Part shown: positions 10,214 through 64,000 of the stretch, piece after piece | Layout of the letters: each line of letters opens with the position of its first letter | Numbering within the stretch: the stretch's first letter is position 1 | Origin: a virus | Taxonomy: Duplodnaviria; Caudoviricetes | Virus record (IMG/VR): IMGVR_UViG_3300020577_006105 | Reading direction: 5' to 3' (one strand) | Length of the DNA: 64,000 nt | Program-made: the position numbers and the translations under genes | Notes under the pieces: model-generated | Seen by the model: only the letters and a program-made list of their open reading frames with translations | Told to the model about the DNA's origin: nothing | The model's database searches: none

Positions 10214-10869
10214 TGTTTTCGCCTCAGCAAATCGCTTCTTCCAGCATCTGGATTGATTCCATCTACCTTGTATGAGAACCGATGTAATCCTCGTACTTTT
10301 CCGTGTTGCCTAACAGCAGTTTTATGCACTGGCGATACGTAACCCTTGTGCGCATCGAGATGATACTCTGGATATTGCTCTCCGAGTTCGCTCATTAGAT
10401 TGTCTCTATATGTCTTGGCTATAATTGAGGCGGCCGCCACCACATGTGACAGAGAGTCTGCTTTTGCCATCATAATATGCGGCTCAAGGTCACACTCGGG
10501 CATCTGGTCTAAGACGAACAAATCAACATCCATACTCTGTTGGATTATCTTTCCTGCTTCGTATGATGCCGTTGCATTTGCCCAGGTAAGCCCCTTGCGG
10601 TCAATTGAAGGTGCTTCAATTTGGAACACGGTCCAAGCCAGAGCGACCTCTTTAATTTTCTCAGCAAGTGATTCACGAAGTTGCGCCGATATTTGTTTGC
10701 TGTCTGTCAGTTTTGGAATTACGACATCTTTGGGTAACACCACTGCTCCGACCACAAGTGGTCCCGCCCAGGAACCTCGTCCTACTTCATCTATACCACA
10801 CAAAATATCTCCATATTGCTCGCGGAGTTTTGTGTCATTGGCATAAGCCTCTTCTGGAGTAATTCTCAT
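10210..10869 (-). CDS. rnhB: ribonuclease HII
   Basis: GIDEVGRGSWAGP, DSKQI, KADSLSHVVAAASIIAK.YRD, HKGY and HRFSY. Confidence 0.95.
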   Translation of the reverse strand: MRITPEEAYANDTKLREQYGDILCGIDEVGRGSWAGPLVVGAVVLPKDVVIPKLTDSKQISAQLRESLAEKIKEVALAWTVFQIEAPSIDRKGLTWANATASYEAGKIIQQSMDVDLFVLDQMPECDLEPHIMMAKADSLSHVVAAASIIAKTYRDNLMSELGEQYPEYHLDAHKGYVSPVHKTAVRQHGKVRGLHRFSYKVDGINPDAGRSDLLRRKQ

Positions 10870-12590
10870 CTAATCAACTTCGATGCAAATTCAGACAGTT
10901 CTTTATTGGCCTTCACCATGATTTCTTGACATGATTCATCAAGAGATTCCAGCAACTTGATGTTCTTGTCTTCTTGTGCATCGACTAAAGATTGGAATGC
11001 ATCATCAATTTCTTCTTTGATGCCTTCACTAAGCACGCCCCATGCATCTCTCTTCAGGGCTTCTATTTGGTGTATTCTACCACGAATTTTGTCTTGTGCA
11101 GCGGCGAGGATGAAATACTGTTCATCATCTGCTCGAGACTGCTCTGCCTCATTCATCATTTGCTCAACTTCTTCTGATGTTAAACTTGAACTTCCAGTAA
11201 GTACAACCTTTTGCGCGATTTGGCTCACAAGCTCTTTGGCTTTGACGCTCAAGATTCCGTTGGCATCAACATGGAAACCAACTTCAATTTCAGGAACACC
11301 TCTCGGTTTCTCTGGAATTCCCTCCAGCTTAAACTGACCAAGGAGTTTATTACCATCAGCCTTGAGGCGCTCGCCTTGATAAACCTTGATTGCTACTGAA
11401 TTCTGGTTGTCTTCAGTGGTTGTGAACATCTTGGTGGCCTCTGCTGGAATGGTTGTATTGCGATTTATCATTCGGTCCATAACACCACTTGCTGTTTCAA
11501 TACCCAGGGTCAAAGGGATGACATCAACCAGGAGAATATCGGGCGCAGTTTGACCAGACAGGATAGCGGCTTGTCTGGCTGCGCCAACAGCGACCGCCTC
11601 ATCTGGATTTACGCTCTTATTTGGCTTTTTGCCGGTCCATTGCTCGACCATGGATGCAATGAGGGGTATGCGTGTAGAACCGCCTACAAAGACAACCTCG
11701 TCAATCTGAGAGGCATTTATGCCTGCATCTCTGAGTGCTAGTTCTAGACAAGACTTGGTTTTCATGACAATTGGCTCAATTAGCTGATTGAAAGTTTCTC
11801 TTGTCAGGGTTACCACTGGCATTCCATGAATTGCGATTTTGGTCTGTTGTGTAGAGGTCAGAACTTTTTTAGCAGATTCAGCAGCAGTACGTAATGCAGC
11901 CTCGGAGTCATCATTTGCCACATAATCCTGCCATTGATTTCGACAGTAATCCATAATGACATGGTCAAAATCATCACCGCCCAAGTGCGTGTCGCCGCTT
12001 GTGGACTTTACATTGAACATGCCGTCGCCACTCAACTGTAGTACTGTGATATCAAATGTTCCTCCGCCAAGGTCGTAAACCACAACCGTCTGCCTTTCTT
12101 TTTTGTCGAGACCATAGGCCAGTGCAGCAGATGTTGGTTCGTTGATAACCCGAAGTACTTCAAATCCAGCAATTTCGCCAGCGGTTTTTGTGCTTTGGCG
12201 TTCATCACTGTTGAAATACGCCGGCACAGTAATAACAGCCTTGTCAACCTTGTATCCAAGGTATGCTTCGGCATCGTTCTTGATTTTGGATAAGATAGCC
12301 GCACTAATTTGTTCTGGGCTATACTTCTTGCCGCGCACTTCAACGCGATAATTCGTACCCATGTGTCGCTTGATAGACCTTACGGTGCTGTTAGCATTCA
12401 TGGACTCGCCATCGTGCGCCAGCTTACCAACGATAACTTCGTCGTCGTCCCACACCGCAAAGACAGATGGCGTAAGTCTTTCGCCTTCGGCATTTGGTAT
12501 GATTTCTATGGAACCATCTTCCCTGAGGCACGCTGCAACACTGTTGGTAGTACCAAGGTCGATTCCCAGAGCTTTGATTTTTTTACTCAT
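10866..12590 (-). CDS. dnaK: Hsp70/DnaK chaperone
   Basis: [51 protein letters not shown], linker [22 protein letters not shown]. Confidence 0.97.
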
Positions 12591-63227: not shown

Positions 63228-63256
63228 TTGACAAAAAACGAAGTCTGTTGTATAAT
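63228..63256 (+). promoter_or_regulatory. consensus sigma70 promoter
   Basis: TTGACA (63228-63233), 17 nt, TATAAT (63251-63256); T-tracts upstream resemble an UP element. Confidence 0.9.
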
Positions 63257-63295
63257 ATGAAGGTGAGCGATGAAAACATCGCGAAAGGAATGAAC

Positions 63296-63409
63296 ATGCG
63301 ATTTAGCTTGAATAACCATAATGGAAGCACACGGTTGGCCTATCAGGCCAATACCGCCGTGCATAATTATCCCAATATGGTTCGGGCTAACTGGGGGTAC
63401 CAGGCTTAA
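63296..63409 (+). CDS. putative attenuator leader peptide MRFSLNNHNGSTRLAYQANTAVHNYPNMVRANWGYQA
   Basis: AAAGGA Shine-Dalgarno (63284-63289) 6 nt before the ATG; 7 Asn, 2 His and 3 Tyr in 37 codons; its 3' end overlaps the antiterminator strand. Confidence 0.65.
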   Translation: MRFSLNNHNGSTRLAYQANTAVHNYPNMVRANWGYQA

Positions 63410-63442
63410 TCGTAAGATTGACCAATCCCCAAGAAAGCCCGG
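63382..63442 (+). promoter_or_regulatory. predicted antiterminator hairpin
   Basis: TCGGGCT (63382-88) pairs with AGCCCGG (63436-42) and TGGGGG (63392-97) with TCCCCA (63426-31), enclosing a TAATC-GTAA-GATTG hairpin. This sequesters the 5' arm of the terminator. Confidence 0.6.
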
Positions 63443-63468
63443 CTCACAAGGTCGGGCTTTCTTTTTTT
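63431..63468 (+). terminator. intrinsic terminator (attenuator)
   Basis: AAGAAAGCCCGGCT-CACAA-GGTCGGGCTTTCTT stem followed by a T-run to 63468. Confidence 0.9.
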
Positions 63469-63490
63469 AGATTTGACGAGGAAAAGGACA

Positions 63491-63514
63491 ATGGAGGACA
63501 ACGACAATAATTAG
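63491..63514 (+). other. mini-ORF MEDNDNN*
   Basis: GAGGA (63478-82) 8 nt upstream; codons ATG GAG GAC AAC GAC AAT AAT TAG. Confidence 0.35.
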
Positions 63515-63561
63515 CGCGAAGGCGTGCCACTTGATGTGACGCGCTGGAGCGCGAACATCAA

Positions 63562-63637
63562 GGCTCGTGAGCAAGCTGGTAGTTGCAGACGTCTGTTAAA
63601 CGGAAAGGGCTGGGGTCAGAACCCAGGCGGGCCTCCA
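63562..63637 (+). tRNA. non-canonical tRNA (anticodon GTT, Asn) with encoded CCA
   Basis: 76-nt cloverleaf: acceptor GGCTCGT/GCGGGCC + T + CCA; D stem GCAA/TTGC; anticodon loop CTGTTAA (GTT at 63595-97); T stem CTGGG/CCCAG. Atypical G8, T-loop GTCAGAA and two mismatches in the anticodon stem. Confidence 0.75.
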
Positions 63638-63690: not shown

Positions 63691-64000
63691 ATGAGTGCAA
63701 GTAAAACACACAAGGTTGTGTCATGGAGAAGAAGGGTAAAAAGATTGCTGATTGAGTACAAAGGTGGAAAATGTATCCAATGTGGTTACGAAGAAGATTG
63801 TCCGCCAGCATATGCATTTCATCATCGAGACCCGAATCAAAAAGACTTGACCATTAGTGGAAAATCATGGTCTTATGAAAGACTTAAAGCAGAAGCAGAT
63901 AAATGTGACTTGTTGTGTGTAAGATGTCATACAGAACTACATTACAAATGGCAAGCAACAAAAGACGACAACAAATGGGAGAAGCACAAGAAAAAGTCAC
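63691..64000 (+). CDS. HNH endonuclease (3'-truncated by the window edge), type common in phage tRNA regions
   Basis: Translated by hand: MSASKTHKVVSWRRRVKRLLIEYKGGKCIQCGYEEDCPPAYAFHHRDPNQKD...DKCDLLCVRCHTELH; absent from the ORF track because it has no stop in the window. Confidence 0.85.
   Translation, partial: MSASKTHKVVSWRRRVKRLLIEYKGGKCIQCGYEEDCPPAYAFHHRDPNQKDLTISGKSWSYERLKAEADKCDLLCVRCHTELHYKWQATKDDNKWEKHKKKS

Follow-up and report, generated by a model that had tools for sequence, protein, structure and literature searches.

Towards the end of a 64,000-nt stretch of viral DNA (IMG/VR record IMGVR_UViG_3300020577_006105, Caudoviricetes; hereafter the window) lies a short leader that we consider a candidate attenuator of phage tRNA genes. 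A promoter, a small open reading frame (ORF), an intrinsic terminator and a tRNA-shaped RNA follow one another here on the plus strand between positions 63228 and 63637, and several RNA helices compete within the leader. Its elements are listed below, MFE denoting the minimum free energy fold and SD the Shine-Dalgarno sequence.

63228 to 63256 (+), sigma70-type promoter TTGACA-17 nt-TATAAT, matching the consensus at 12 of 12 positions
63267 to 63282 (+), 5'-proximal hairpin P1 (GCGAUG/CAUCGC), from the MFE
63284 to 63289 (+), SD AAAGGA, 6 nt before the ATG and unpaired in the MFE
63296 to 63409 (+), leader ORF of 37 codons plus TAA, MRFSLNNHNGSTRLAYQANTAVHNYPNMVRANWGYQA (ATG at 63296, TAA at 63407-63409)
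63303 to 63320 (+), region 1, the 5' strand of helix P2, holding codons 3-9 with Asn-Asn-His-Asn; pairs with 63376-63390 in the full-length MFE
63327 to 63362 (+), inner hairpins of P2 with an apical stem at 63336-63352; two compensatory double changes
63376 to 63390 (+), region 2, the 3' strand of P2, of which 63382-63388 (UCGGGCU) doubles as the antiterminator's 5' strand
63392 to 63431 (+), helix P3, which holds the stop codon and on which the antiterminator stacks; -16 kcal/mol alone, -27.9 with the antiterminator
63431 to 63469 (+), intrinsic terminator with a 14-pair stem (63431-63463), a loop of 5 nt and a T run; region 3 is the 5' arm of this stem (63436-63442)

The promoter is the sole perfect sigma70 consensus in the window, where 0.04 would be expected, and stands as a dedicated start 35 nt past the preceding gene, the upstream genes lying on the same strand. 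From an inferred transcript start at about 63262-63264 the leader AUG follows at a distance of 34 nt, and it is unpaired in the MFE, as is the SD. The encoded peptide contains 7 Asn, 2 His, 3 Tyr and 0 Asp residues, corresponding to 12 NAY codons of which 9 are NAU. Both the unique, fully matching promoter and the SD-led 37-codon ORF with this codon count had been described in an earlier note made from the letters of the DNA alone, and both descriptions hold. Relative to a background of 0.113 in the window's long ORFs, an Asn/His/Tyr content of 12/37 has a binomial probability of 5e-4; 45 of the 38,914 stop-free 37-codon windows in six frames reach 12 such residues. The preference for NAU (9/12, against 0.54 in the long ORFs) has a binomial tail of about 0.1 by hand estimate, which weakens the case for a bias of that kind.

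What these codons might sense becomes apparent downstream of the terminator in related phages. Close relatives were collected by means of a 158-aa protein encoded upstream (70-99% identical), and deeper ones by means of Ro60 (L033, 78% identical; L034, 71% identical). Behind the terminator the relatives carry one or two tRNA-Asn(GUU), then tRNA-His(GUG), then one to three tRNA-Tyr(GUA), with no tRNA-Asp. These are followed by a YrlA-like Y RNA directly upstream of Ro60 (42 bits, E = 2e-7, below the Rfam cutoff of 69), by Ro60 itself with its TROVE and vWA domains, and further on by an Rnl1-like RNA ligase (phrog_562, E = 6e-32), all on the same strand. Rfam detects divergent extra tRNA copies in this island. 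In L033 and L034 the gene order is the same as in the close relatives, and the array reads Asn-Asn-His(-His)-Tyr-Tyr. In L001, the stretch from the terminator to the array contains no sigma70-like site matching at least 10 of 12 positions.

G001, a relative of 478,840 bp whose IMG/VR record has direct terminal repeats and a rating of complete, places this array in the context of a whole tRNA set. It yields 63 tRNA-model matches, and ARAGORN, run on the clusters outside the island, called tRNAs for Trp, Ala, Ile, Glu, Phe, Pro, Met, Val, Lys, Ser, Thr, Asp, Arg, Cys, Gly, Leu and Gln. About 60 tRNAs for these 17 other amino acids thus lie elsewhere in the genome, and the Asn, His and Tyr tRNAs lie only in the island. 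Since the Asn, His and Tyr tRNAs of G001 occur only behind this leader and tRNA-Asp occurs elsewhere, the over-represented residues of the leader (Asn, His and Tyr, no Asp) match the tRNAs of the island exactly. A downstream tRNA array matching the codon bias of the leader had been envisaged in the earlier note, and it is present in the relatives in this form.

The leader RNA is strongly structured. In full length it folds far better than shuffled sequences (z = -5.6), and the P1 stem is retained with different sequences in L002 and L018 (both GCGG/CCGC), in L034 and in L033. The terminator stem pairs fully (100%) in all variants, one double change included, and L033 and L034 have terminators in the corresponding position; the earlier note's strong intrinsic terminator was confirmed by its 14 pairs and T run. 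The same note had pointed to leader segments complementary to the 5' arm of the terminator and to its flank. These do pair: UCGGGCU (63382-63388) with AGCCCGG (63436-63442), stacked on a UGGGGG/CCCCA helix, and this antiterminator (2:3) is the MFE of the nascent RNA before the 3' arm of the terminator exists. Predicted energies are about -19 kcal/mol for 1:2, about -12 for the core of 2:3 and about -21 for 3:4, the terminator, and these proportions resemble those of the trp leader.

The effect of a ribosome on this fold was explored by a stall scan, in which a 30-nt footprint was forced unpaired at each codon in turn. The three helices are mutually exclusive. In this constrained folding, proposed earlier, 2:3 stays formed for A-site codons 1-25, which include 9 of the 12 sensing codons, and is blocked for codons 27-35. 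One detail of the earlier note had to be revised, since a ribosome at the stop codon would cover the 5' strand of P3 and not the antiterminator strand, which is blocked at A-site codons 27-35.

Conservation was evaluated at two depths. In nine close leader variants the frame and the stop codon are kept without indels inside the ORF, the indels being confined to P1, the SD spacer, P3 and the terminator loop, and the Asn/His/Tyr count is 11-13. All relatives keep the promoter (with TATAAA as the -10 element in L033), and all except L011 (AAAAGA) keep the SD. Across a much larger distance, L033 and L034, whose leader peptides are 34-41% identical to that of the window, retain the promoter, the 5' hairpin, the SD, an ORF of 36 or 38 codons and a strong terminator; the conserved leader and terminator anticipated for related phages are found even at this degree of divergence. 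The columns that are invariant between the window, L033 and L034 are M1, N7, N9, A15, H23, Y25 and A31, 4 of the 7 being Asn, His or Tyr. Within them the pattern CAU-nnn-UAU is conserved, lies in an unpaired loop in the window and in L033, and tolerates AAU, GCU, UCG or UCA as the middle codon, which fits selection on codons better than selection on pairing. A leader-peptide profile searched against 1.84 billion representatives matched the same clade only, plus one spurious match.

The alternative helices are also retained. In the nascent-RNA MFE of L033 and L034 the homologous segment of the ORF pairs with the terminator 5' arm, over 11 bp and 10 bp, respectively, and the extensions of this antiterminator are lineage-specific (GAGU/ACUC in L034, CCGGUU/GACCGG in L033). 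In L011, a G to A change at 63433 (alignment column 172) is compensated both at its terminator partner and at its antiterminator partner, the latter by a synonymous AAC to AAU change. Pair counts in the close variants reveal compensatory changes in the terminator, in P1 and in the inner hairpin, where the double changes are G-C to A-U in L008 and C-G to U-A in L011. It is possible that the inner hairpins of P2 serve as a pause hairpin. Helix 1:2 hardly varies, apart from two disruptions in L011, and the independent lineages available for judging covariation are few. The energy gain of the antiterminator falls within the range of shuffled sequences, so the support for this helix comes from its conserved position and its covariation, as judged from the alignments, and not from its strength.

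A second leader of the same design was found in G001:

L030:2167-2455 (about 148.2-148.5 kb), perfect promoter, SD-led 34-codon ORF MLLLVNAMAIKESAAIFAVEPWFVVPAEHTRSRT and 13-pair terminator

It precedes the main tRNA cluster of that genome, with tRNAs for Trp, Ala, Ile, Glu, Phe, Pro, Met and Val. Of its residues, 22 of 34 belong to the set of its own block (P = 0.0016) and only 2 are Asn, His or Tyr, and the Asn/His/Tyr leader conversely carries the Trp/Ala/Ile/Glu/Phe/Pro/Met/Val set at background level. The nascent fold of the second module likewise sequesters the 5' arm of its terminator. That one lineage should hold two leaders, each in agreement with the tRNA block behind it, is difficult to put down to chance. 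The other consensus promoters within the minus-strand tRNA cluster of G001 are not accompanied by a leader-terminator module.

Between the terminator and the end of the window lie four further features:

63478 to 63514 (+), mini-ORF MEDNDNN with purine-rich SD GAGGA at 63478-63482, ATG at 63491 and TAG at 63512-63514
63530 to 63562 (+), conserved hairpin abutting the 5' end of the tRNA-shaped RNA; z = -2.9 for 63470-63565
63562 to 63637 (+), 76-nt tRNA-shaped RNA with anticodon GUU (Asn), loop CUGUUAA, U73 and an encoded CCA
63691 to 64000 (+), HNH homing-endonuclease gene, cut by the window end; homologue at L003:11003-11575, PHROG HNH families, E = 9e-23

The mini-ORF has counterparts before the Asn tRNA of relatives (MEESDNN in L011, MEDDNNNN in L034, MEEGNNI in L033). 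In addition, MDDHHHTQLNN... precedes tRNA-His and MESDYNYT... runs into tRNA-Tyr, both with purine-rich headers, and diverged versions are present in L034 (MEDHHH..., MESDYSY...) and L033 (MESDYTY). The His and Tyr mini-ORFs are located at L001:11046, L001:11593, L002:11543, L002:12092, L034:4784, L034:5244 and L033:5318; they read into the tRNA bodies, and their cognate codons are retained from lineage to lineage, with variation in the codons around them. Among close relatives the mini-ORFs are nucleotide-invariant. No comparable mini-ORFs were seen before the 55 tRNAs of G001's other clusters, nor before the tRNAs of the distant Ro60 phages L022 and L023. These distant phages have tRNA arrays beside Ro60, and no leader-terminator module was found in the stretch examined upstream of Ro60. 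We treat the mini-ORFs as added evidence, read from codon content, that translation of cognate codons may matter at this locus. By eye, AGCGCG after the stop of the window's mini-ORF can pair with CGCGCU in the tRNA-abutting hairpin (window 63513-63546), and because of this pairing, translation of the mini-ORF could alter the fold beside the RNase P site. The hairpin at 63530-63562 is itself retained regardless of which tRNA comes next.

The RNA at 63562-63637 warrants more caution. The earlier note had called it a tRNA with the Asn anticodon, and the cloverleaf spacing, the GUU loop and the CCA agree with that description; the programs' calls, the core nucleotides and the pairing of the anticodon stem do not. 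ARAGORN called zero tRNAs in the window, and the Rfam tRNA model RF00005 gave no match at E <= 10 in the window and none at E <= 5 for the better-paired L008 copy. The core has G8, G14, G54 and G58 with the T-loop GUCAGAA, in place of the conserved U8, A14, T54 and A58. Because of two anticodon-stem mismatches (G27.A43 and A28.G42), the MFE of the window copy is not a cloverleaf; the copies of L002 and L008 do fold as cloverleaves, and the anticodon stems of relatives are ACCGU/ACGGU or GCCGU/ACGGU. To judge from its letters, the RNA has the shape of a tRNA and an Asn anticodon but is atypical and partly degenerate, with a putative role in decoding. Identity as a Y RNA was considered and rejected, as the anticodon arm is normal and the YrlA-like match lies elsewhere, beside Ro60.

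In L001 and L011 this first slot is occupied differently, by an 87-nt tRNA with a long variable arm and a GUU (Asn) anticodon (L001:10857-10943, L011:10844-10930), which has the type II shape of bacterial tRNA-Tyr, tRNA-Leu and tRNA-Ser. The boundary of the swap between the 87-nt tRNA and the 76-nt odd-core RNA lies exactly at the tRNA 5' end. The window ends inside the HNH gene, about 360 nt beyond the tRNA-shaped RNA. This gene (also at about 11003-11575 in L002-L007) occupies the canonical tRNA-Asn slot of other relatives, and the odd tRNA-shaped RNA is therefore the sole Asn-anticodon RNA in the island stretch examined.

Taken as a whole, the locus is probably a trp/his-type leader-peptide attenuator that gates the phage Asn, His and Tyr tRNAs together with the Ro60, Y RNA and ligase genes behind them. 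From the elements, folds, codon-to-tRNA match and conservation observed here, we infer leader translation, stalling, read-through and a physiological trigger as follows. Host RNA polymerase would start at the consensus promoter, and a ribosome would load at the SD and translate the 37-codon leader. If the leader were not translated, region 1 would pair with region 2, the terminator would form and transcription would stop at about 63469. Smooth decoding would have the same outcome, either through 1:2 pairing or through a ribosome sitting on region 2 with its A site at codons 27-35. If, instead, Asn, His or Tyr codons within the first 25 were decoded slowly, because the cognate GUN-anticodon tRNAs are scarce, uncharged or damaged, the stalled ribosome would occupy region 1. 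Region 2 would then be free, UCGGGCU could pair with the terminator 5' arm atop P3, and polymerase could read through into the Asn/His/Tyr tRNA island or, in the window, into the tRNA-shaped Asn RNA and then the HNH insertion. A ribosome-mediated attenuator gating GUN tRNAs was the central proposal of the earlier note; it withstood all the computational checks applied, and the codon-to-tRNA match, the exclusive helices and the conservation speak for it, but the atypical tRNA of the window and the unexceptional antiterminator energy leave it only partly supported.

Several other observations count against an attenuator of this kind. The terminator is thermodynamically dominant in all constrained and full-length folds, and any switch must therefore be kinetic, as the switch of the trp attenuator likewise is. 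The energy gain of the antiterminator is matched by 7.7% of dinucleotide shuffles for the window, 15% for L033 and 37% for L034. The sensing codons are scattered, without a run as in hisL or pheL, and N27, N32 and Y35 lie where a stall should favour termination. In the diverged leaders the enrichment is modest, with 7/36 Asn/His/Tyr residues in L033 and 6/38 in L034. Among the nine close variants, the variable sites are distributed 6/10/12 over the codon positions, without a clear coding signature, and Asn/His/Tyr codons vary about as often as others; at such shallow divergence, however, this codon pattern appears uninformative either way. Finally, the tRNA array is observed in the relatives and not in the window, and a phage-specific promoter could lie downstream of the terminator, outside the reach of the sigma70 scan.

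Some of the same observations would suit a stand-alone small gene, whose transcript of about 205 nt would encode a 37-aa protein or act as a small RNA (sRNA). The tRNAs would then be transcribed independently, from an unrecognised phage promoter or through constitutive leak of the terminator, and the codon bias would be coincidental. A transcript that folds this much better than shuffles, a strong terminator that dominates all folds and an antiterminator energy inside the shuffle range are in keeping with such a gene, and attenuator RNAs are known to act also in trans as sRNAs (rnTrpL, PMC6614838). We nevertheless regard it as unlikely. Coincidence would have to explain why the leader is enriched in exactly those three amino acids whose tRNAs follow the terminator, tRNAs that are absent from the relative's remaining set of about 60, and why a second module with a different but again matching composition exists in the lineage. 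The fixation of N7, N9, H23 and Y25 at 34-41% peptide identity is unlike a folded microprotein, and no homologue of the peptide was found outside the clade among the 1.84 billion representatives. Alternatively, the leader might be an RNA switch that works independently of translation, binding a factor that chooses between terminator and antiterminator, with the ORF being incidental. Candidate factors would be an uncharged or damaged tRNA (as in the T-box), a tRNA fragment, Ro60 or a phage protein. The compensatory changes in P1, the inner hairpin and the terminator point clearly to selection on structure, and the distribution of variable sites over codon positions does not resemble that of a coding sequence. 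RNA-binding parts abound nearby (Ro60 and the YrlA-like RNA), and damaged tRNAs induce the Salmonella rsr-rtc operon (PMC7790460). On the other hand, every lineage has retained the SD, the AUG, the open frame and the stop, and indels fall exclusively outside the ORF; the CAU-nnn-UAU pattern persists in an unpaired loop, its middle codon free to vary, and cognate mini-ORFs recur downstream. In addition, no Rfam family, including the T-box, matches the leader beyond sub-threshold hits driven by the terminator, and on balance a switch of this type seems very unlikely.

The known leader families were examined individually. A T-box riboswitch was rejected, with no T-box match at E <= 10 for the window, E <= 1 for L001 and E <= 5 for L008. 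Other known families were rejected as well, the sub-threshold, terminator-driven hits being to Thr_leader, rnk_pseudo and MicC. A further alternative assigns the terminator a constitutive, unregulated partial activity that would set the ratio between upstream mRNA and the downstream tRNA-Ro60 transcript, with no sensing role for the ORF. Leaky terminators are common inside phage operons, and the upstream genes do lie on the same strand. Such an arrangement would, however, leave unexplained a dedicated consensus promoter 35 nt after the preceding gene, a conserved leader ORF, a conserved copy of the terminator arm inside this ORF, and a codon-to-tRNA match that is seen twice in the lineage; we consider it highly improbable.

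As for the wider setting, the window encodes topoisomerase II subunits and a DnaK homologue; one ORF is helicase/terminase-like, and several ORFs run to 1,000-2,700 codons. The region has no DNA match among 50,697 phage records or in IMG/VR, and IMG/VR protein and exact-pattern searches with the flanking gene and the tRNA-like RNA gave no match. A degenerate leader pattern led to a single IMG/VR contig, and a metagenome scan for the locus to one additional locus, which is chimeric. Metagenome contigs as long as 479 kb, one of them rated complete, encode relatives of the proteins flanking the locus, and the window is therefore, judging from these relatives, a fragment of a huge phage. Its DnaK/Hsp70 homologue (10866-12590, minus strand) is 42-47% identical to matches annotated as DnaK in the phage collection, and equally to unannotated stretches of uncultured phages of 480-735 kb. 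G001 also encodes tRNAs with CUA (amber) and UCA (opal) anticodons (L024:9329-9404, L026:169-243), which may serve late-stage recoding or suppression of stop codons; the giant ORFs of the window are open under the standard code despite the suppressor-type tRNAs of this relative.

Individual relatives offer some further observations. L033 is contig JAFDWS010000002.1 (1,363,254 bp) of NCBI assembly GCA_018268375.1, a metagenome-assembled genome labelled Armatimonadetes, in which the island and its syntenic flanking genes were examined over 13.6 kb; this 1.36-Mb contig could represent an integrated element, a phage genome of very large size, or an artefact of mis-binning or chimeric assembly. At L035:6001-7617 a Ro60 gene 68% identical to that of the phage lies in an apparently bacterial context, with PhoX and pyruvate kinase neighbours and no tRNAs nearby, which is a possible clue to the host lineage or to the source of the gene. 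In one relative an IS605 OrfB/TnpB-type gene with a Cas12f1-like TNB domain is inserted directly after Ro60 (L003:14583-15752). L017 (1855-2182) switches within a phage tRNA T-arm into what by eye resembles the 3' end of a tRNA and then a gene, and it is probably an assembly chimera formed via shared T-arm sequence.

Leader-peptide attenuation is textbook knowledge for amino-acid and synthetase genes. The phage leader shares with trpL, hisL, pheL, leuL, thrL and ilvL a short, SD-led ORF close to the promoter, regulatory codons within region 1 or immediately ahead of it, the mutually exclusive helices 1:2, 2:3 and 3:4, and an intrinsic terminator that precedes the regulated genes. Like thrL and ilvL it would be multivalent, sensing several amino acids. 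Besides being encoded by a phage, it differs in what it gates, namely tRNA genes followed by Y RNA, Ro60 and RNA ligase, whereas the enterobacterial leaders gate biosynthetic enzymes. Its sensing codons are scattered (12/37, and fewer in relatives) in place of tandem runs and, unlike in the enterobacterial leaders, its stop codon is located past region 2 in an additional helix (P3), which the antiterminator extends. Closer in purpose are pheST, controlled through the leader peptide pheM, and the T-box genes, where the decoding machinery is controlled by the state of the cognate tRNA; these, however, are aminoacyl-tRNA synthetase genes and not tRNA genes, and T-boxes bind tRNA directly without translation, whereas our reading of the phage leader involves a translated ORF. 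Full-text literature searches retrieved no attenuator of tRNA genes.

The composition of the island invites comparison with RNA repair and with phage counter-defence. Tyr, His and Asn tRNAs are GUN-anticodon (queuosine-family) tRNAs that are cleaved by colicin E5-type nucleases. From the neighbourhood of Ro60, Y RNA and Rnl1-like ligase we infer a possible link to queuosine and anticodon nucleases, and hence to counter-defence. Bacterial and phage Ro60 proteins with YrlA Y RNAs have been described (PMC4201824), TROVE proteins occur in jumbo phages (PMC7824862), and the rsr-yrlBA-rtcBA RNA-repair operon is induced by damaged tRNAs (PMC7790460). That operon and the relatives' island have in common Ro60, a YrlA-type RNA and an RNA ligase in the same orientation. 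In contrast, control of the island would be exerted by a translated leader and not by the RtcR activator, its ligase is Rnl1-like and not RtcB, and its unit also includes tRNA genes. Phage tRNAs have been reported as counter-defence against tRNA-cleaving systems (eLife 2023, PMC10264068), for instance T5 tRNA-Lys against PARIS (PMC11464382) and phage tRNAs against retron effectors (PMC11555353). As in the excerpts of these reports, specific tRNA copies, some with altered cores, could here replace host tRNAs cut by anticodon nucleases. Those excerpts contain no mention of a sensor that switches the tRNAs on, whereas the island has a candidate decoding sensor as well as Ro60, Y RNA and an Rnl1-like ligase.

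A more ambitious view, which we put forward tentatively and with some doubt, is that attenuator and per-tRNA mini-ORFs form a two-tier, translation-read tRNA rescue island in which sensing, replacement and repair work as one unit. In the first tier a failure to decode Asn, His or Tyr codons, such as an anticodon-nuclease attack on GUN tRNAs might cause, would make the attenuator open the operon. In the second, mini-ORFs with cognate codons would tune the maturation of the tRNA pair that each adjoins: a ribosome stalled on the cognate codons would leave the tRNA free to fold and be processed, and a ribosome reading on would enter the tRNA body. The same transcript would supply variant-core replacement tRNAs, the Y RNA, Ro60 and the Rnl1-like ligase.

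If the attenuator is real, the phage would gauge how well its host can decode particular codons and turn on its own tRNAs when they are needed, by means of a compact element of about 240 nt whose alternative folds are predicted without assuming a phage factor. The long-standing question of why phages carry tRNAs could thereby be approached from the side of regulation. The attenuator would also tie tRNA supply to RNA repair within one operon, through Ro60, Y RNA and the Rnl1-like ligase, and would link these huge phages to current work on tRNA-cleaving defence systems.

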